This document shows positions 1 to 24,254 of a stretch of 24,759 nucleotides of DNA, one piece after another. Within the stretch, counting starts at the first letter, position 1, and each line of letters opens with the position of its first letter. The stretch comes from a virus (Duplodnaviria; Heunggongvirae; Uroviricota; Caudoviricetes): IMG/VR virus record IMGVR_UViG_2537561689_000015, one strand, 5' to 3'. Under the pieces are notes generated by a model. The model was not told where the DNA came from. It searched no databases and was given only the letters and a program-made list of their open reading frames with translations. Both the position numbers and the translations under genes were made by a program.

Positions 1-1119
1 TCAAATAACCAACTTAACCCATTCCTGACCTCGAGTATCGTTATAGCGATCGGTGGTTGCCTGGACTTTATGTCCTAGTAATGTTTTTGTATCGATACCC
101 TGTGCACGGTACAGCCGTTCTGATAGAGAGCGTTGTTCATGAAATGTTGGCGGAGTTTTTCCTGCTGGTGGAATTATCCCAGCCAGATCCCGTGCTTTGG
201 CAAAGTAGTCGCTCAGGTTGTCTTTACTCATCGGCTTCGGTTGTTTCTGGTGCCGACTATGGATTAGATATGGACTTAATATTCTGTCTCGGCACCCATC
301 AATAACTTCTTTTAACGTTATCCCAATGGCATCACAGCGTAGTGTAAGCGGTAACGCCAGACGCATTCCGGTTTTTCCCTGGGTGATATGCAAGTGTTCG
401 TTCCACACATCTGAAAAACGCATGTGGCAAATGTCATCACGGCGCTGACCAGTAACAATCGCAAGAAGCATTGCGTTACGGATAAAGTGTTTTTCAGGCG
501 TTGCATTGTAAATTTTTTGCCAGTCTTCCATGGTGAGCCTGGCTCTGGTTACTTTAGGGATCGGTTTACGGGTAGCCTCCGGAGGATTCCATCCAGGAGG
601 AACTTCCCCTGCATGCTGTGCTTCTTTATAAATATCAACCCATAATCCACGATTTACTCTCGCTGTGCTGACCATGTCTTTATCCAGCCACTCATCCAGT
701 ATTAATGCAAAGTCTCTTACTTCCAGTTCTTTCAATGGGTGGTTTCCCAGACGGGAAACCAGGTATGCAGCCATTCGGGCTTTTTCTTTGTGAGTTGTAG
801 TTGCAATATCCCCATTTTTCAGTCGCGTGTCCTGTATTTTCAGATATCGATCAACCCATGCCTTTAATCTGATACCCCGACGTTTTGTTGCTGACGGACT
901 TTCATCAATTTTGCGCATGAAATATTCAGCTTCTGCTGCAGCTATTCGCTGATTGGCTGTGGAAGCGATTTTTTCTGCTTTGCCTTTGTCTGTTCCGAGA
1001 CCGTGAAATTTTCCAGTCACAGGGTTTTTATACTGGTAGTAAACCCTGCCAGTTCTGCGATCAAACTTTTCGTAAAGACCGGTTACGTCAGTGCTGTTTT
1101 TTCGTGGCCTCGGTGACAT
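1..1119 (-). CDS. int: Phage integrase (tyrosine recombinase)
   Basis: 372-aa ORF on the minus strand; its stop codon is at window positions 1-3. Terminal position in the prophage with an excisionase-like gene overlapping its start, and a C-terminal catalytic-type region (His/Arg/Tyr-containing) typical of lambda-type integrases. Assignment by resemblance and context. Confidence 0.9.
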   Translation of the reverse strand: MSPRPRKNSTDVTGLYEKFDRRTGRVYYQYKNPVTGKFHGLGTDKGKAEKIASTANQRIAAAEAEYFMRKIDESPSATKRRGIRLKAWVDRYLKIQDTRLKNGDIATTTHKEKARMAAYLVSRLGNHPLKELEVRDFALILDEWLDKDMVSTARVNRGLWVDIYKEAQHAGEVPPGWNPPEATRKPIPKVTRARLTMEDWQKIYNATPEKHFIRNAMLLAIVTGQRRDDICHMRFSDVWNEHLHITQGKTGMRLALPLTLRCDAIGITLKEVIDGCRDRILSPYLIHSRHQKQPKPMSKDNLSDYFAKARDLAGIIPPAGKTPPTFHEQRSLSERLYRAQGIDTKTLLGHKVQATTDRYNDTRGQEWVKLVI

Positions 1120-1418: not shown

Positions 1419-3890
1419 TTAAAAATCAGCCTGACTCGGGATCAGTTTTTGCCAGATTGCTGAAACGTATTTTGCCTGGTAACGGGCGTCATCAAGTGCA
1501 TTATGGCGCTCACCTTCGAATGGAATAGCCGTTCTGGCATCGAAGTCTATGGCTTTCCCCAGCTCAACGATTGTGCGTACATCGCGATCGTTGTAGTAAC
1601 GCCACGGGCAGGGGATCCCCTGCCGTTCGTATGAACGGCGCAAAATCGTGTTGTCGAAGTTGGCTCCATTTCCCCAGACCTGAACAAAAAATTCGCCGGA
1701 GTTTTCGTCGATAAATTCCCGCAATTGTAACAGTGCATCATCTAACGGGATTTCATCGGTCATAATAGCAGATTGCGCTTCGCGTGATTGCTTAAGCCAC
1801 CATTTAATGGTGTCCCGATCAATGACTCCGCCAGCAGTTTCCAGATCGATAGTCTTACTAAATTCCGGTCCCATATCTCCGGTTTGCGGATCGAAAAATA
1901 TTGCACCTATTGAGATGATCGGGGCATCGGGATTTTTTCCCATGGTTTCAAGGTCGATCATTAGATGGTCACACGTCCTGCTGGTGGATGTGATAACGCG
2001 ATGACCGTTCACCGTAATTAAGGGATCTGCCGTCTCGCCAGTTTCACTATCGCTGGCGTGATCCTGAGCGCTGCCAGCATTCTCCTTGTGTGGATGTTCA
2101 GCGCCTTCCATTTTCTCCGAATCGTCTTCCTGAACTTCAACCTGGTTCTTGTCATCGAATGTTTCCTGGTATGTTGCGTCGCCCATCACCGCGCCACAAT
2201 CAGGGCAGTTGCCGCCGCCGGTCTGGCCGCAGGCGGTGCAGATCTTTTCCGGTTCCTGTTGCACTACTGGTTCAGGTTGTTTCGTTTCTTGCTCGTTTTG
2301 TAACGCATTTGGGCTGTTTTGTTCCGCTTTCTGGCCGTTCTGTTCCGTTTCTTGCTGGTTCTGGTTCACAGAATCGCGGGTTTCCATCCCCTTAACCCAT
2401 TTCGGATCATTCGGGTCGCTAATCCCTTCAATAAATTCACCACGTGATGCAGCAAGCAACTTATCGGCGTCAGGCTGGCTGATATTGGCTGCCTGCATAA
2501 TTTTGTTTACTTCGTCAGCGGTAACTTTTACCGGTTCTGGCTGTGCGGTCGTGTCAGATGCACCAGTATTTTGTTGTGAACCTGAGTATGTACTGTTTTT
2601 GCGGGCGAAATATTCTTCTTTCGTGATTTCAGTAGCCCCGGCAGCCAGCGCCTTATCCAGACCAGAAAGTTTGTTTGCGCGACCGTATTTTTCGCCATCC
2701 TTGTCGGTGAAGAGGAAGTAGAACGGCCCCTCACGCTCTACAGATGGTTCGACTTCCACTTTGCATTCGGTTTTTTCGTTGTCCGGAATTGCCGTTTCCA
2801 CTGCATCAGTTTCTGGTACTGGCGACGAGAGAGTATCAGTTGCGATCTGATTTGTTCCTTCATCTTCAAACACGCCCTTTGTAGTCAGGTATTCAGTAAT
2901 GTATTTGTTCAGTACCACAGGGTCTTTGTGAATGTCGATCGGACGCTCACGGACAAGGCCAAAAATAGTCTGGCGGTCGTAGCGAAGGGCATCAGGCTGT
3001 TTGCGTATTGATGCTGAGATACGCTTCCAGTCTTCGCGGTCGTTGTTGATAACTTCATTTTTTGCCCAGCGATGGATGCTGCCGTCAATGTTTCCGGCAT
3101 CAATGTCACCAGGCCACAGAGCGTAGGCCAGTTCATCATCCAGTGTTTTCCATGTCTGCTTATATTCGCGACGAATGACTGCAGTGACAGGGGGGATATT
3201 TTCTGCTGAGTTTTCAGTGTGCTGTCGGTTGACTCTGGCGCGGGCGAGATCAACAGCAGACGTGTATTTTCCAGTCTCTTTGCGCTCTGCGTCCTGCCGT
3301 TTTTTCCAGTTACGTAATTCAGCCTGAATTTCGGGCCATTTGGCACCCGGATTACATTTGTGTTTAACCCATCCGATAGCGAACAGTTTGCGTTCCGGAT
3401 ACATAGCGTTAATTTCAGGCGTTTTCATCAGTGCTTCAACGATATGCCCGTCAAAGGTAGCAACGTCTTCCTGCAGTAATTCCTGCGCGTCAATCGCCAT
3501 ATCAACGGTGATGTTTTCACATGTACCGAACTTAACCAGGACCGCGTTCTGTACTTCAAGGGACAGCTTGTCAAAATTGACGTTCATCGGATCGGATTCT
3601 GGTTCGACCGGAATAAAGGAAGCGGATTCCTCATCCCAGCGGTTTTCCTGCATATATTCAGCATCCCAGGAATCGAGGGCAGGGCGGGGTATACCGGGTT
3701 TATCCTCGCAAACAAGAAATTTATAAGCGCAGTCCTGAGCAGCCGGATAATGTTCCAGGAATTGCCAGTGAAATTTTGCGCGGGCGCGACGTTCATCACC
3801 GGCTTCAATGGCAGTGGCTACAGCGACGGCACCTTCTTCCTTTATTGCCTGTTCGTCCGGAATAGCGGCGCAAATAAAGACTTTACTCAT
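1419..3890 (-). CDS. Large exonuclease-family protein with C-terminal DnaQ-like DEDDh 3'-5' exonuclease domain
   Basis: 823-aa ORF. C-terminal region carries the three exonuclease motifs DLETMG, WGNGANFD and HNALDDARYQAKY. The central part has a CxxC...CPDC zinc-ribbon-like motif and a Q/E-rich low-complexity stretch. Confidence 0.85.
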   Translation of the reverse strand: MSKVFICAAIPDEQAIKEEGAVAVATAIEAGDERRARAKFHWQFLEHYPAAQDCAYKFLVCEDKPGIPRPALDSWDAEYMQENRWDEESASFIPVEPESDPMNVNFDKLSLEVQNAVLVKFGTCENITVDMAIDAQELLQEDVATFDGHIVEALMKTPEINAMYPERKLFAIGWVKHKCNPGAKWPEIQAELRNWKKRQDAERKETGKYTSAVDLARARVNRQHTENSAENIPPVTAVIRREYKQTWKTLDDELAYALWPGDIDAGNIDGSIHRWAKNEVINNDREDWKRISASIRKQPDALRYDRQTIFGLVRERPIDIHKDPVVLNKYITEYLTTKGVFEDEGTNQIATDTLSSPVPETDAVETAIPDNEKTECKVEVEPSVEREGPFYFLFTDKDGEKYGRANKLSGLDKALAAGATEITKEEYFARKNSTYSGSQQNTGASDTTAQPEPVKVTADEVNKIMQAANISQPDADKLLAASRGEFIEGISDPNDPKWVKGMETRDSVNQNQQETEQNGQKAEQNSPNALQNEQETKQPEPVVQQEPEKICTACGQTGGGNCPDCGAVMGDATYQETFDDKNQVEVQEDDSEKMEGAEHPHKENAGSAQDHASDSETGETADPLITVNGHRVITSTSRTCDHLMIDLETMGKNPDAPIISIGAIFFDPQTGDMGPEFSKTIDLETAGGVIDRDTIKWWLKQSREAQSAIMTDEIPLDDALLQLREFIDENSGEFFVQVWGNGANFDNTILRRSYERQGIPCPWRYYNDRDVRTIVELGKAIDFDARTAIPFEGERHNALDDARYQAKYVSAIWQKLIPSQADF

Positions 3891-10819: not shown

Positions 10820-11242
10820 ATGACGAAATTTACCAGAGAGCAATTGATTGCTCATGCTAATGAAAGTGTGAAATCCATGAAATTTGCTGCGCGACAGACC
10901 GTGTTTAAGACTTCAAGAGTTGCCATTGAAATGGATCTTGCGCTTGCCCGTATTGCGCTTGCCTCACTTGAAGCAATGCCAGTTGCATGGTCCTGTGCTC
11001 ACAATATGGTTTTGTTCAATGCTGAATCTGTTGCGGCATACGCAAAACACTCAGCCATTGCGCCAAAACCCCTGTACGCTGCGCAACCGGCATCACTTTC
11101 ACATGAGGAAGAGTTGGTAATGCTGGTTAAACAATTGGTAAGTCAGTTGAAAAAAGCGAAACCAGATTGCAAATTACCGGATATGGCGATGGGGTATCTG
11201 GAGCGGAATGGGCTGATAAGCGCGGAGGATGTTTTACGATGA
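10820..11242 (+). CDS. Hypothetical protein (140 aa)
   Basis: Start taken at the first ATG (track starts at a TTG at 10769). No recognisable motif. Its stop overlaps the ATG of a 27-codon hydrophobic ORF. Confidence 0.55.
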   Translation: MTKFTREQLIAHANESVKSMKFAARQTVFKTSRVAIEMDLALARIALASLEAMPVAWSCAHNMVLFNAESVAAYAKHSAIAPKPLYAAQPASLSHEEELVMLVKQLVSQLKKAKPDCKLPDMAMGYLERNGLISAEDVLR

Positions 11243-11322
11243 CCTGGCCGGAGGCATTCACAACGAAAGGAATTGCAATGGCGGCAGCACTTGTTGTGTA
11301 TTCGATTTGCAGCTGGGGATAA
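11239..11322 (+). CDS. Possible small hydrophobic peptide (27 aa)
   Basis: ATG overlaps the upstream stop as ATGA and is preceded by GGAGGA. Hand translation MTWPEAFTTKGIAMAAALVVYSICSWG. Confidence 0.25.
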   Translation: MTWPEAFTTKGIAMAAALVVYSICSWG

Positions 11323-11533
11323 AAACGGTTTGCGGGGAAATCTTAGTTAAGTAGAATGACTGTGGGTGCTTGAGGCTATCTGTCTCAGGCATGAACACCA
11401 AAAGGCAGATAGAGAAAAGCCCCAGTTAACATTACGCGTCCTGCAAGACGCTTAACATTAATCTGAGGCTCAATCCATGCTGAACACATGTAGGTTAGCC
11501 TCTTACGTGCCGAAAGGCAAGGAGAAGCAGGCT

Positions 11534-11689
11534 ATGAAGCAGCAAAAGGCGATGTTAATCGCCCTTATCGTCATCTGTTTAACCGTCATAGTGACGGCAC
11601 TGGTAACGAGGAAAGACCTCTGCGAGGTACGAATCCGAACCGGCCAGACGGAGGTCGCTGTCTTCACAGCTTACGAACCTGAGGAGTAA
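11534..11689 (+). CDS. hok: Hok/Gef-family type I toxin (small membrane toxin)
   Basis: 51-aa product MKQQKAMLIALIVICLTVIVTALVTRKDLCEVRIRTGQTEVAVFTAYEPEE, which I recognise as Hok-family (closest in my memory to HokD/RelF). Strong AAGGAGAAG Shine-Dalgarno. An in-frame upstream extension from 11477 may be a Mok-like leader reading frame. Structured leader and a terminal hairpin as in hok mRNAs. Confidence 0.85.
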   Translation: MKQQKAMLIALIVICLTVIVTALVTRKDLCEVRIRTGQTEVAVFTAYEPEE

Positions 11690-11757
11690 GAGACCCAGCG
11701 GGGGAGAAATCCCTCGCCGCCTCTGATGTGTCAGGCATCCTCAACGCACCCGCACTT

Positions 11758-11778
11758 AACCCGCTTCGGCGGGTTTTT
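11758..11778 (+). terminator. Rho-independent terminator after hok
   Basis: AACCCGCTTCGGCGGGTTTTT: a GC-rich stem with a TTCG loop and a T-run. Confidence 0.6.
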
Positions 11779-11904
11779 CGTCGCATTATGAGGTTGTAAT
11801 TTTAGCTACCATGAGACTATCCTAAGGATCTCAAACAGATCTATTTTGTATCAAATTTGGTGCATGGCTTTGCCAATAATCGGAAAACAAAAGGACTCAT
11901 TAGT

Positions 11905-12084
11905 ATGAGCTGCCCACTCAAAAAACACACGCGGTTGAGTATTCCGCCTCGCGATAAAAGCGTTGTGGCAGTCCCTCGCCCAGTGATTGATGAAAACTGC
12001 GCACATCGTGAACAAGTGAAAAATGCTTTTGATTTCGGTTTTTCTCGTTATGAGAAAGCCATGGAAGAACTTTCAAAAGTGTAA
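11905..12084 (+). CDS. Putative antitoxin partner of the Doc-family toxin (59 aa)
   Basis: Start taken at the ATG at 11905, preceded by AAGGA (track 11857). Immediately upstream of the Doc-like gene, the usual antitoxin position. Not Phd-like by eye. Inverted repeat GATCTCAAACAGATC lies in the upstream region. Confidence 0.5.
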   Translation: MSCPLKKHTRLSIPPRDKSVVAVPRPVIDENCAHREQVKNAFDFGFSRYEKAMEELSKV

Positions 12085-12102
12085 TGATGGGTATTGTACT
12101 CT

Positions 12103-12588
12103 ATGGCTGAGATTGTTGAAGGAGTGCATTACCTTACGGTTGATGATCTTGTTGAAATCAATCATTCCCTAATTGAATTACAGACGCCAGATGAGCCCGT
12201 TGGTGTTCTGAGTCCAGATAACTTAAGTTCTTCTCAGGCCCGTCCCAGCATGGTTCGATGGTATGAACAGACTAATGACATGTTTGTACTGGCATCGGTA
12301 TTGATTGAAAGTCTGATTCAGAATCATCCGTTTGCTAATGCGAACAAACGAACAGCTATGATGGCTGGTTACGTCTTCTTGTTGTTGAATGGCTATGAGT
12401 TAACAGCACCAGGCGATGAAATCGTGGAAATGGCAGAGGGACTGGCCTGCAAAACCTATACTCGAGAAGATCTCGAGAACTGGTTGTGTTATTGGTCTCG
12501 CGCGTATGACAGCCGGGAATTATGTAAAACAAGCGCAACTATTGTTTTGTATGAAACTATCAAGCTTAAAATAGAACAGCAAAACTAA
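12103..12588 (+). CDS. Doc/Fic-family toxin (Doc-type kinase motif)
   Basis: Motif HPFANANKRTAMMAG fits the Doc-type signature HxFx(D/N)(A/G)NKR. Start taken at the ATG at 12103 (track starts at a TTG at 12094). AT-rich gene. Confidence 0.8.
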   Translation: MAEIVEGVHYLTVDDLVEINHSLIELQTPDEPVGVLSPDNLSSSQARPSMVRWYEQTNDMFVLASVLIESLIQNHPFANANKRTAMMAGYVFLLLNGYELTAPGDEIVEMAEGLACKTYTREDLENWLCYWSRAYDSRELCKTSATIVLYETIKLKIEQQN

Positions 12589-17127: not shown

Positions 17128-17203
17128 GGCCCTTTAGCTCAGTGGTGAGAGCGAGCGACTCATAATCGCCAGGTCGCTGGTTCAAATCCAGCAAGGGCCA
17201 CCA
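17128..17203 (+). tRNA. tRNA with CAU anticodon (Ile2/lysidine-type or Met)
   Basis: Hand-folded cloverleaf: acceptor GGCCCTT/AAGGGCC, D-stem GCTC/GAGC, anticodon loop CTCATAA, T-loop TTCAAAT, 3' CCA encoded. Resembles the ileX/ileZ-type tRNA of E. coli. Confidence 0.85.
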
Positions 17204-17210
17204 TCACATA

Positions 17211-17287
17211 CCGCCATTAGCTCATCAGGATAGAGCGCCAGCCTTCGAAGCTGGTTGCGCGGGGTTCGAGTCCTCGATGGCGGTCCA
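17211..17287 (+). tRNA. tRNA-Arg (anticodon UCG)
   Basis: Hand-folded cloverleaf: acceptor CCGCCAT/ATGGCGG, anticodon stem CCAGC/GCTGG with loop CTTCGAA, T-loop TTCGAGT, CCA encoded. Confidence 0.8.
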
Positions 17288-17300
17288 TTATCTGTACCCT

Positions 17301-17377
17301 GCGTTGTTAGCTCAGCCGGACAGAGCAATTGCCTTCTAAGCAATCGGTCACTGGTTCGAATCCAGTACAACGCGCCA
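17301..17377 (+). tRNA. tRNA-Arg (anticodon UCU)
   Basis: Hand-folded cloverleaf: acceptor GCGTTGT/ACAACGC, anticodon stem ATTGC/GCAAT with loop CTTCTAA, T-loop TTCGAAT, CCA encoded. Confidence 0.8.
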
Positions 17378-20732: not shown

Positions 20733-21560
20733 ATGGGTTTTTCATCAGCCCGAAATTTGGGAAGGGACATATCGGCAGGATTTTCCCCACCACGTCGCAT
20801 GCCGATTTCGGAGGCTGTTAAAAAATTCATGCGTGTTCCCAAGGGGGCTGGTAACTCGGTGCCATGGGATCCTGAACTGACACCCTACATCATTGAGCCC
20901 ATGAACTGCCTGGCATCGCGTGAATACGATGCGGTGATTTTTGTTGGTCCTGCGCGAACAGGGAAGACCATTGGTCTGATCGATGGATGGATTGTCTATA
21001 CCATCGTTTGCGATCCTTCGGACATGCTCGTTGTGCAGATGACCGAAGATAAGGCCCGCGAGCATTCTAAAAAGCGCCTCGACAGAACGTTCAGAAGCAG
21101 TGCGGCGGTAAAGAAAAGAATGAGTCCACGTCGTAACGACAATAATGTCCATGATAAGACGTTCAGGGATGGCTCGTTCCTTAAAATTGGTTGGCCCTCG
21201 GTCAACATTATGTCGTCGTCGGATTACCGGTTTGTCGCCTTAACCGATTACGACCGTTTTCCGGAGAATATCGACAGCGAGGGTGATGGTTTCTCCCTGG
21301 CCTCAAAACGTACCACCACATTTATGTCCGCCGGGATGACTCTGGTGGAGAGCTCGCCGGGACGTGACATCTGCGACAGCAAATGGCGACGTAAGTCGCC
21401 TCATGAAGCGCCACCGACGACTGGTATTCTTTCCCTTTACAATCGTGGTGACCGCCGCCGCTGGTACTGGCCATGTCCGCACTGCGGTGAATATTTTCAG
21501 CCAGCCATGGATGCCATGACCGGCTACCGTAATGAACCGGATCCCTTTAAAGCCAGGTAA
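20733..21560 (+). pseudogene. Terminase large subunit, N-terminal fragment truncated by IS insertion
   Basis: ATG preceded by AGGAGG. P-loop-like FVGPARTGKT and a CPHCGE zinc motif. The frame ends at a TAA created by the first bases of the IS element (GTAAGCG). Confidence 0.8.
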
Positions 21561-21586
21561 GCGACTCGTCAGAACCGTATTGATAT

Positions 21587-23158
21587 TTACTGAGAGCTCA
21601 GATCAACTTTCCAGGGCAACAGATCGCGTACCCGGTTTGCCGGCCAGTCCTGGATATGTTCAATGACGTAACGCAGCCACTTTTCTGGCTCCACATTGTT
21701 CAGACGGCATGTGCCGATCAGCGAGTACAACACCGCCGCATGTTCACCACCGCTGTCGGAACCCGCGAACATCCAGTTTTTCCGGCCTACGGCCACTCCC
21801 CGTAAGGCGTTCTCTGCGATGTTGTTGTCGATTTCCACCCAGCCATTACTGCAGTACACGTTCAGTGCATCCCACTGTTTCAGCAGGTATGCGAACGCTT
21901 TTGCCGTATCTGAGTGACGCGACAGTGTTTTCATCTGTTGCTGTATCCAGTCATACAGTGACTGCATCAGTGGCGCGGCTCTGGCTTTTCTTGCCGCCAG
22001 ACGCTGTTCTGCTGAACAGCACCGGACCTCTGCCTCGATGGCATACAGTTCACCGATACGCTGCAGGGCTTCCGTGGTGATGTAGGTGGGCGCTCTTGCA
22101 TGCACATCGTGGATTTTTCTCCGGGCATGAGCCATACACGCGGCTTCCGTTATTCTGCCGGATTCGTATAACGCCCGGTAACCACCGTAAGCATCGGCCT
22201 GAAGCACACCGCTGTAACCGGCCAGGTGATTTTGTGGATGGATACCTTTCCGGTCCGGACTGTACGCGAACCAGACCGCCGGGGGCATCTGTGAACCGGC
22301 GTTACGGTCATCACGGACGTAGACCCACAGCCGGGCTGTCCGGGTTTTACCGCTGCCCGGCTCCTGGACCGGGACGGGGATATCATCAGCATGGACTTTA
22401 CCGGGCATCAGCACATACTGGCGCAGGACGTCATACAGCGGCTCCAGTAGTTCAGCAACGGCACCTGTCCAGCGCCCCAGTGTGGCACGGCTCAGCTCCA
22501 CACCCTGACGGCGGTATATCTCTGACTGGCGGTATAACGGCAGATGGTCTGCATATTTCCCGGTGACGACATGGGCCAGGAGCCCCGCTCCGGCATAACT
22601 GCGTGCAATGGGTTTTGAAGGTACTGGTGCCTGCACGATATGGTCGCACCGACAACAGGCCAGTTTCGGACGTTGTGTTTCGATAACCTTAAAGGCGCTG
22701 CTGATAAGCTCCAGTTGCTCTGACACATCACATCCCAGAGAACTGAGTTCACCACCACAGGCAGGACAGCATTCCTCTTCCGGCCGGATAACCCGGGTTT
22801 CACGGGAAAGTGAGGCCGGTAACGGTTTACGGGCTGAAGACTGGCGCAGGGCGGATGGCAGTACCGGGTCATATTGCTCACCCAGCGTTTCCGCCATTTC
22901 TTCCTGAAGTGCGCTGATTCGCTCCTGTGCTTCCTGTATCTGCCGTTCGGTTTTTGCACGAAGTTTTTCTGAGCTTTTACCGAACTGCATACGTTGCAGT
23001 TTCGCAACCAGCGCCTTCAGCCGGTTGATTTCGGAAGCATAAGCCGCCACCCGCTGTGAGAGCAGGCGGTTGTATTCAGCCATCTGGCGTATGGTGTCCT
23101 GTTGCGTCTGCAACAGTGCCCGCAGGCGGGCGTTCTCATGAGCAAGTGAGGTGTCCAT
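21587..23158 (-). CDS. tnpC: IS66-family transposase (TnpC/Orf3)
   Basis: 523 aa with an N-terminal coiled-coil or leucine-zipper region and a Cys-rich zinc motif (CPACGG...CCRC), the typical size and layout for IS66 transposases. Confidence 0.9.
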
Positions 23159-23177
23159 ATCCTCACTTTACAACGGG

Positions 23178-23525
23178 TTATATGCGGATTCCAGCGCGTT
23201 CCGTTCGTTTCGGGTGCTTCCAGTTGATACCTTCAAGAAGCATGGATAACTGAGCCGGAGTAAGGTGCACCTTGCCGTCACGGGTGACTGGCCAGACGAA
23301 GCGGCCCCGCTCCAGGCGTTTGGTGAAGAGGCACAGTCCGTCACTGTCAGCCCACAACACTTTTATCTGGTCACCCCGGCGTCCGCGGAAGATGAACAGG
23401 TGTCCGGAGAACGGGTCATCCTTCAGGACGTTCTGAACTTTTGATGCCAGGCCGTTAAAGCCATTTCGCATATCGGTGATACCTGCAACCAGCCAGATAC
23501 GCGAACCTGCAGGGAGAGATATCAT
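23178..23525 (-). CDS. tnpB: IS66-family accessory protein TnpB (Orf2)
   Basis: 115 aa, between the Orf1 and transposase genes. The sequence MISLPAGSRIWLVAGITDMRNGFNGL is characteristic of IS66 Orf2. Confidence 0.9.
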   Translation of the reverse strand: MISLPAGSRIWLVAGITDMRNGFNGLASKVQNVLKDDPFSGHLFIFRGRRGDQIKVLWADSDGLCLFTKRLERGRFVWPVTRDGKVHLTPAQLSMLLEGINWKHPKRTERAGIRI

Positions 23526-24202
23526 CAGTGGCTGCTCCCTTTTATTTCGCGGATAAGTGTCTGTAATAACGCCGGCGTCAGTTTACCTTTAAGCCTGAGA
23601 GTTCCGGCCGGCAGAACCAGCTCACAACACAGACTGTCGGACGGTGTATTTATCTGCTCTGGTTCCTGTGCGGGGGCCGGGATTTTATTATCCGGCTCCG
23701 GCGTTAACGTCACGGGAAGCAGTGCCGGCATATTTTTTCCGGAAGGCAGCAGGCCACCTTTCCGGTATTGATGGCGCCAGTTGAAGAGCAGGTTATCGTT
23801 GATTCCGTTTTCCCGGGCGATCTGCGCCACACAGGCTCCGGGCTGCAGTGACTGCTCCACTAAGGCGATTTTAAACTCATAAGGGAAGTTGGGCCGCCGG
23901 GGACGTTTTTTTACCACGGGGGCTTCGGATATAACGGTGCTTTCAGGACGTACGACTGGTACCGTGGAAAATTGTCCGTAAAGGCAGGCATCAAGTTCCT
24001 GCTCCGACATGCCTGCGGGCAAAGGCCACGAAAGGCCAGCTCTCCGAAAGCGCACGAACATACTACAAACAGTTGATTTTGGTACACCCAGGCGACGCCC
24101 GGCCACAACCCGGGGTAAATGTTCTTCAAAGTGAAGACGTAAAGCTTCAGTGATCCAGGTCCGGTGTTTCATACGATAGTGTCCATTAAAAATGATGGAC
24201 AT
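23525..24202 (-). CDS. tnpA: IS66-family accessory protein TnpA (Orf1); start uncertain
   Basis: Track ORF of 225 aa; the true start may be internal (for example the ATG at 24172). HTH-like region. Its stop overlaps the TnpB start. Confidence 0.75.
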   Translation of the reverse strand: MSIIFNGHYRMKHRTWITEALRLHFEEHLPRVVAGRRLGVPKSTVCSMFVRFRRAGLSWPLPAGMSEQELDACLYGQFSTVPVVRPESTVISEAPVVKKRPRRPNFPYEFKIALVEQSLQPGACVAQIARENGINDNLLFNWRHQYRKGGLLPSGKNMPALLPVTLTPEPDNKIPAPAQEPEQINTPSDSLCCELVLPAGTLRLKGKLTPALLQTLIREIKGSSH

Positions 24203-24254
24203 TATTTTTGTAGAGCCGGAGGAAACAGACCAGACGGTTTAAATGAGCCGGTTA

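Follow-up and report, generated by a model that had tools for sequence, protein, structure and literature searches.

Sequence evidence for a complete hokD-type hok/mok/sok locus in a defective lambdoid prophage of ETEC E. coli

The region between positions 11330 and 11780 of the window, by which we mean the whole stretch of 24,759 nucleotides (nt) analysed here, most probably represents a complete hokD-type hok/mok/sok type I toxin–antitoxin locus, located in a defective ETEC E. coli prophage of lambdoid type and expected to work like the plasmid R1 and hokW paradigms; we put the probability of this reading at about 95%. A hok/sok-like type I locus inside a prophage had been proposed in an initial annotation of this DNA, and existing records bear the proposal out, since RefSeq labels the identical DNA hokD, and the record of the Stx2 phage 933W labels a 93%-identical homologue mokW, hokW and sokW. 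The locus is already known: it is a complete and unremarkable copy of a familiar module, hok/sok, real but not new. As a discovery it carries little weight, because this is among the oldest and best-studied toxin–antitoxin families, hokD is already present in RefSeq and the near-identical phage homologue hokW-sokW has been characterised by experiment. The modest point to be made is that the window copy is the intact form of hokD, of which K-12 keeps only a leaderless version. In practical terms, the window copy shows hokD with its regulatory leader in place, while the K-12 reference copy has none; in addition, RefSeq records annotate the toxin CDS alone, so that the antitoxin RNA and the mok frame go unannotated across about 4,000 complete E. 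coli genomes. The presence of the elements described below, their pairing potential and their sequence identity to known systems are in silico observations.

The toxin gene is an open reading frame at 11534–11689 (+), whose translation is the 51-amino-acid (aa) protein MKQQKAMLIALIVICLTVIVTALVTRKDLCEVRIRTGQTEVAVFTAYEPEE. Pfam HOK_GEF (PF01848) matches this protein with 82.9 bits (E 1.2e-23) over profile positions 1–42 of 42, phrog_251 ('MokW-like host killing') matches it with 114.7 bits, and PGAP names it hokD. The NCBIfam Hok models scored under their curated cut-offs (48.5 vs 73) and PADLOC gave no Hok model match, the assignment being decided by Pfam and PHROGs. A Shine-Dalgarno (SD) sequence, AAGGAG, can be read at 11519–11524 (+), 9 nt before the ATG, where it overlaps the −35 element of the sok promoter on the opposite strand. 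The description of a Hok/Gef toxin of 51 aa preceded by a strong ribosome-binding site is therefore confirmed. HokD is among the previously characterised toxic homologues that served as controls in a toxicity assay (bioRxiv 10.1101/2025.08.07.668861). As a side observation, the Tyr47 codon TAC of the window gene is followed by GAA (11672–11677), which creates a TACG motif, and Cys30 is hard-coded; TACG is the reported site of TadA A-to-I editing, leading to Tyr-to-Cys recoding in hokC, hokD and hokE (bioRxiv 10.1101/2025.08.07.668861).

Upstream of the toxin gene, Rfam RF01794 matches positions 11364–11539 with 118.9 bits (E 4e-28; gathering score 59) over the full model (1–157), and across the entire window no other family apart from tRNA attains its gathering score. 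The same model scores 118.3 bits on hokC, 109.7 on hokB and 87.2 on an R1-type copy. Though the family is named 'sok antitoxin', what RF01794 describes is the leader on the hok-sense strand, up to the hok AUG. Weaker Rfam matches overlapping the locus, namely isrK (26.7 bits vs 50), rsmX in the 3′ UTR and a nematode snoRNA, are sub-gathering and were rejected as hairpin-and-terminator look-alikes.

The position of a putative hok promoter on the plus strand (11330–11357), read from the sequence as −35 TTGCGG (11330–11335), a 16-nt spacer and −10 TAGAAT (11352–11357), fits the 5′ end of the Rfam model and would place the +1 at about 11364. Taking the 5′ end from the RF01794 start and the 3′ end from the terminator hairpin, the full-length mok-hok mRNA would measure about 415 nt (11364–11778, +), and it is presumably expressed in the carrier strain. 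A sigma-70 consensus promoter scan of 11200–11900 returned 0 sites, the hok and sok promoters, with 8/12 and 7/12 consensus positions matched, respectively, being under the threshold. A simple terminator scan of the same interval missed the terminator hairpin, we think because its stem runs into the T tract. Both promoters and the terminator were located by homology and folding, after the consensus scan had given nothing. When the full-length RNA (11364–11780, 417 nt) was folded, a minimum free energy (MFE) of −167.7 kcal/mol was obtained (z −7.1), with 0 of 100 dinucleotide shuffles as good, and the 5′ and 3′ ends were paired with each other.

The leader had been described as structured and roughly 200 nt long; the structure was recovered, but the length comes to 170 nt (11364–11533). 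Its two hairpins, earlier placed at 11378–11414 and 11437–11453, emerged close to these positions upon folding, at 11376–11412 and 11436–11451. Specifically, the translational activator element tac, GGGUGCUUGAGG, lies at 11364–11375 (+) and pairs with fbi in the full-length fold, and with ucb both in Rfam and in a six-sequence consensus. When the leader or the truncated RNA is folded, tac finds a partner in TGTCTCAGGCAT (11381–11392, +), forming the metastable hairpin of the nascent transcript, a concept that comes from R1 (PMC9841398). This partner is a direct repeat of the 3′-UTR segment 11727–11738, and both would therefore compete for the same 5′ sequence. Leader hairpin 1 (11376–11412, +), which is the upper tac-stem domain, is supported by Rfam, by folding and by an alignment of six members (the window locus, 933W, a plasmid copy, hokC, hokB and an R1-type copy), among which it shows compensatory AU→UA and CG→UA changes. 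The ucb or anti-SD box, AAGCCCC, maps to 11417–11423 (+); its partner is the mok SD when the leader is closed, and tac in the Rfam structure. The consensus structure of the six sequences is the tac-stem domain, that is, the tac-ucb stem, with 3 pairs carrying compensatory changes. For the leader alone, the closed form (−57.1 kcal/mol, the MFE) and the open form (−55.3 kcal/mol) are nearly isoenergetic, with a gap of 1.8 kcal/mol. The MFE fold of the 3′-truncated mRNA stays closed, with the metastable 5′ hairpin, and no spontaneous open tac-ucb form was seen in it; a closed-to-open switch of the leader is a step that we only infer.

At the other end of the transcript, a 3′-UTR hairpin is found at 11698–11717 (+), with an 8-bp stem and −14.0 kcal/mol. 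By analogy with R1, in which Tr-hok loses its toxicity when its last stem-loop is mutated (PMC9841398), it is likely to be the protective 3′ end of the processed (truncated), active mRNA. Downstream of this hairpin, a segment at 11726–11738 (+) forms an inverted repeat of 77% complementarity with 11477–11489, which takes in the mok start and the Sok-target loop, and the fold-back inhibitory element fbi, CCUCAACGCACCC, at 11739–11751 (+) is complementary to tac bar one unpaired base; both are paired in the full-length MFE structure. A terminal hairpin after hok, also anticipated earlier, was found at 11758–11775, followed by TTTTT. The resulting intrinsic terminator, AACCCGC-TTCG-GCGGGTT plus T run, spans 11758–11778 (+) and folds with −11.8 kcal/mol.

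On the opposite strand, the data point to a cis-encoded Sok RNA with its own promoter and terminator, predicted to face the mok initiation region. By homology with the sokW (933W) and sokC (K-12) annotations, this antisense RNA would comprise 71 nt (11415–11485, −), opening with a single-stranded 5′ tail of 14 nt, followed by a long hairpin and UUUU. Homology thus supports the earlier idea of a Sok-like antisense RNA encoded opposite the leader, but not its location opposite 11440–11540, as Sok would run from 11485 to 11415 with its promoter at 11492–11520. Sok and sokW are identical at 70/71 nt, the sole difference being a loop nucleotide, and probe YO-592, used for sokW on Northern blots, matches 11456–11485 without a mismatch. 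The Sok fold has −30 kcal/mol (z −5.2 for a 75-nt version) and leaves unpaired the 5′ tail GUUCAGCAUGGAUU, which is complementary to the target loop and the mok AUG. The target itself is a hairpin at 11465–11502 (+; −13.4 kcal/mol), equal to Rfam hairpin 3, with the mok AUG in the stem and the loop CUGAACA at 11480–11486, in which the YUNR motif CUGA occupies positions 11480–11483. A U-turn (YUNR) loop is reportedly a feature of the hok/sok family, as is said to have been described by Franch et al. in 1999.

The sok promoter (11492–11520, −) was assigned through its identity to 933W, with 35/35 nt of the segment identical, and is made of −35 TTGCCT (complement of 11515–11520), a 17-nt spacer and −10 TAACCT (complement of 11492–11497). 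Experimental data are available for hokW-sokW: both RNAs have been detected on Northern blots, HokW is toxic and is neutralised by sokW transcribed from its own promoter, and the system depends in part on RNase III and Hfq (PMC8621323). Mutation of the TAACCT −10 abolishes this protection, the promoter-less sokW construct obtained with primer YO-421 being toxic (PMC8621323), and the −10 element read from that primer is the TAACCT of the window sok promoter.

These elements bear on the relationship with hokD (relF, b1562) of the K-12 Qin cryptic prophage, a comparison that had been recommended at the outset. The toxin is 100% identical to K-12 HokD in amino acid sequence (51/51 aa), and from the SD through fbi to the terminator the two loci share 255/260 nt (98.1%), the terminator itself being identical at 27/27 nt. 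By contrast, in K-12 relBE (the end of relE) replaces everything upstream of the hok SD, which makes that copy leaderless: tac, ucb, mok and sok are missing and Rfam gives no match. K-12 hokD lies downstream of relBE, whereas the window has no relBE and shows instead a phage hypothetical gene and then the intact hok leader. The window hokD is therefore the same gene lineage as K-12 hokD in a different, complete context. It could be argued that the window gene, whose toxin is identical to that of a K-12 locus devoid of mok, sok, tac and ucb, and whose carrier prophage is itself defective, is likewise a decayed, inactive hok remnant without working regulation. This explanation, which the initial annotation had kept in sight, is very improbable: the full leader is present here (118.9 bits in Rfam vs none for K-12 hokD), the mok frame, fbi and terminator are undamaged, the sok promoter matches base for base that of sokW, which experiments have validated, and stop codons and frameshifts are absent from the locus. 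Every regulatory element is intact in the window, and it is K-12 hokD that has lost the leader instead.

Stem-loop 2 of the leader deserves a separate description. The sequence TTAACATTA occurs in exactly 2 copies in the 24.8-kb window, at 11426–11434 and 11452–11460, where 0.17 would be expected by chance. A hairpin flanked by direct repeats had been noted here before; the two exact copies are indeed found, but their nature is different, as they are the arms of a near-palindromic stem. As determined by folding and repeat search, stem-loop 2 (11419–11469) is the Sok terminator hairpin on the minus strand, formed by the TTAACATTA arms and an inner hairpin (11436–11451). The stretch TTAACATTAA differs little from its reverse complement. 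In the Sok orientation (UUAAUGUUAA), one TTAACATTA copy pairs with the other via central U·G and G·U wobbles, at positions where the mRNA strand has C·A mismatches, and because the wobbles replace these mismatches, stem-loop 2 reaches −26.6 kcal/mol in Sok compared to −16.8 kcal/mol in the mRNA. With respect to the Rfam consensus this corresponds to a 16-nt insertion, common to 933W and plasmid pO111_2 and absent from hokC, hokB and R1, which explains why sokW is annotated as 71 nt and sokC as 59 nt. In conclusion, members of the hokW/hokD subgroup owe their longer Sok hairpin to the TTAACATTA stem.

An exact 9-bp direct repeat that brackets a 17-nt hairpin, with only 0.17 copies expected, within a segment that appears as an insertion relative to the Rfam consensus, might also be interpreted as the target-site duplication of a small element inserted in the leader and not as RNA design. 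There is very little probability that this is the case. The near self-complementarity of TTAACATTAA lets the copies pair on the Sok strand and extend the hairpin, and removing one repeat plus the insert would, by sequence reasoning, leave a stem with a 2-nt loop. Moreover, 933W and a plasmid copy of only 87% identity have both kept the arrangement, which 4,035 E. coli genomes contain. The target-site duplication was accordingly rejected, the copies being paired stem arms in a conserved arrangement.

The mok reading frame (11477–11689, +) encodes 70 aa. Its ATG at 11477 precedes the hok ATG by 57 nt in the same frame, and ORF translation and comparison with MokW define a 19-codon N-terminal extension, MLNTCRLASYVPKGKEKQA. 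The 19 residues of this extension are identical to MokW and begin with MLNTCR as in MokC, in agreement with the initial proposal that the in-frame upstream extension may act as a Mok-like coupling frame. The same proposal called this frame atypical, which does not hold, since an identical arrangement, with a shared stop codon and a 57-nt offset, is annotated in mokW/hokW and in K-12 mokC/hokC. An out-of-frame mok with a 58-nt offset is the arrangement of plasmid R1 (mok ATG 116–118, hok ATG 174–176) and of K-12 mokB/hokB; either form occurs among annotated members of the family. The mok SD read from the sequence, GAGG (11465–11468, +), is the same motif as the R1 mok SD. Together with its own SD, mok starts inside the region complementary to Sok, and its translation is predicted from these features.

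Ribosomes starting at 11477 would read the whole hok frame, and an in-frame mok thus implies a 70-aa Mok-Hok product. The intact locus could then be imagined to act mainly via this fusion, and not by coupling to a separately initiated 51-aa Hok, especially as every ribosome from 11477 must read through the entire hok frame and the in-frame arrangement is also kept in mokW and mokC. We consider this unlikely. A strong AAGGAG site belonging to hok lies 9 nt before the hok ATG; R1 and hokB have an out-of-frame mok in what is in other respects the same system; what counts in R1 is that mok is translated as far as the hok start (PMC9841398); and HokW produced alone from its own ATG is toxic (PMC8621323). 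Coupling to a separately initiated Hok is the reading that we retain. It is similarly doubtful that the in-frame Mok-Hok, combined with a Sok hairpin that is 16–18 nt longer and far stabler on the Sok strand than on the mRNA strand, confers a distinct regulation on a phage-borne subgroup (hokW/hokD/hokC). If it did, the subgroup might differ, for instance, in Sok half-life or Hfq dependence, and a second toxin isoform could tie toxin release to prophage induction, not to loss of the element.

Comparison with known systems places the locus next to hokW-mokW-sokW of the Stx2 phage 933W and the Sakai prophage Sp5, with which it shares the lambdoid-phage location and the gene order. In addition to the Sok, sok promoter, in-frame Mok extension and 16-nt hairpin extension considered above, the leader is 97.1% identical to that of 933W. 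The toxins are less alike: HokW is 92% identical and its C-terminal tail differs at 4 residues (TAYEPEE in the window, VDYESEK in HokW). The hok promoter region is only 76% identical, and 933W diverges after fbi (segment positions about 2955–3000 vs window 11752–11778), without the clean intrinsic terminator that is common to the window and K-12 hokD. A further difference is that the window prophage is defective and that there is no stx in the window. The compared 933W segment also contains, upstream of the hokW region at segment positions 125–213 (+), an Rfam sRNA-Xcc1 match (69.1 bits; gathering 53), which has no counterpart in the window.

K-12 hokC (gef)-mokC-sokC resembles the window locus in having mok in frame with a 57-nt offset and a Mok that starts MLNTCR, the Mok-Hok sequences being 75% identical. 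Its leader is 64% identical, sokC is short (59 nt) and lacks the 16-nt insert, and the hokC 3′ end is disrupted by IS186. Plasmid R1 hok/mok/sok (parB) has the same elements and the same proposed mechanism (tac/fbi, ucb/mok SD, Sok, RNase III), but its mok, offset by 58 nt, is read in another frame than hok (PMC9841398). The R1-type leader carries an insertion in hairpin 1 and none in hairpin 2, and the R1 system is plasmid-borne and a proven post-segregational killer.

On this basis a mechanism can be proposed, in which the 3′ processing and the conformational switch would follow the R1 model. Transcription from the weak promoter would give the mRNA of about 415 nt (11364–11778), with tac held by the local metastable hairpin as long as the transcript is nascent. 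In the full-length RNA the 5′ tac and the 3′ fbi would pair, the 3′-UTR segment would mask the mok start and ucb would sequester the mok ribosome-binding site; locked in this form, the RNA would be neither translated nor bound by Sok. Slow 3′ trimming to the stable hairpin at 11698–11717 would remove fbi, whereupon tac could pair with ucb, freeing the mok ribosome-binding site and exposing the target hairpin with its YUNR loop. The antisense RNA Sok, unstable and about 71 nt long, would be transcribed from a minus-strand promoter of its own and attack the target loop with its single-stranded 5′ tail; the duplex would cover the mok ribosome-binding site and AUG and be cut by RNase III. Should the supply of Sok stop, mok would be translated and the hok ribosome-binding site opened, and the 51-aa Hok would be made, enter the inner membrane and depolarise the cell.

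The whole 24,759-nt window is 100% identical, by megablast, to a lambdoid prophage found in several ETEC genomes, e.g., those of strains 504237 and ETEC-2265; in strain 120899 the prophage adjoins potC. In the window, at about 20733–24759, an IS66-family element (ISCro1; tnpA, tnpB and transposase) cuts short the gene for the large terminase subunit, which leaves the hok-bearing prophage defective. In the ETEC RefSeq records, annotation by PGAP is limited to the 51-aa CDS, as "type I toxin-antitoxin system toxin HokD", and among the matches listed these records hold no annotation under the Sok segment or the mok frame (window 11415–11533), despite the strong RF01794 match to the leader. The 75-nt Sok segment is found at no less than 90% identity in about three quarters of complete E. 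coli genomes (4,035/5,426).

As to the function of the locus, it could serve in prophage retention, in helping lysis upon induction, as hokW does, or in abortive infection. The Sp5 hokW-sokW system makes growth arrest after induction faster and doubles phage release (PMC8621323), but this lysis-assisting role may not apply in a defective prophage, in which retention of the element or abortive infection would be more plausible. R1 hok/sok stabilises plasmids and partly excludes phage T4, and hok genes are about four-fold enriched in prophages. On the other hand, chromosomal hokA, hokB and hokC have been reported not to mediate post-segregational killing (bioRxiv 10.1101/2025.08.07.668861), which makes the physiological role of the window locus uncertain.

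Other features were noted in the neighbourhood. Directly downstream of hok, a Doc/Fic toxin gene maps to 12103–12588 (+; TIGR01550 127.9 bits, phrog_577, PDB 9vzc 6.7e-13). Lying 18 nt upstream of this gene, an ORF of 59 aa (11905–12084, +) matches phrog_2208 (unknown function) and gave no Pfam, NCBIfam, PADLOC or PDB match. The region 11905–12588 (+) is therefore a second toxin–antitoxin candidate, in which the 59-aa ORF may be a non-Phd antitoxin for Doc. Finally, a phage tRNA cluster is located at 17128–17377 (+), where ARAGORN calls Met(CAT), Arg(TCG) and Arg(TCT); the first of these is tRNA-Ile according to PGAP, i.e., with a lysidine-modified CAT anticodon.
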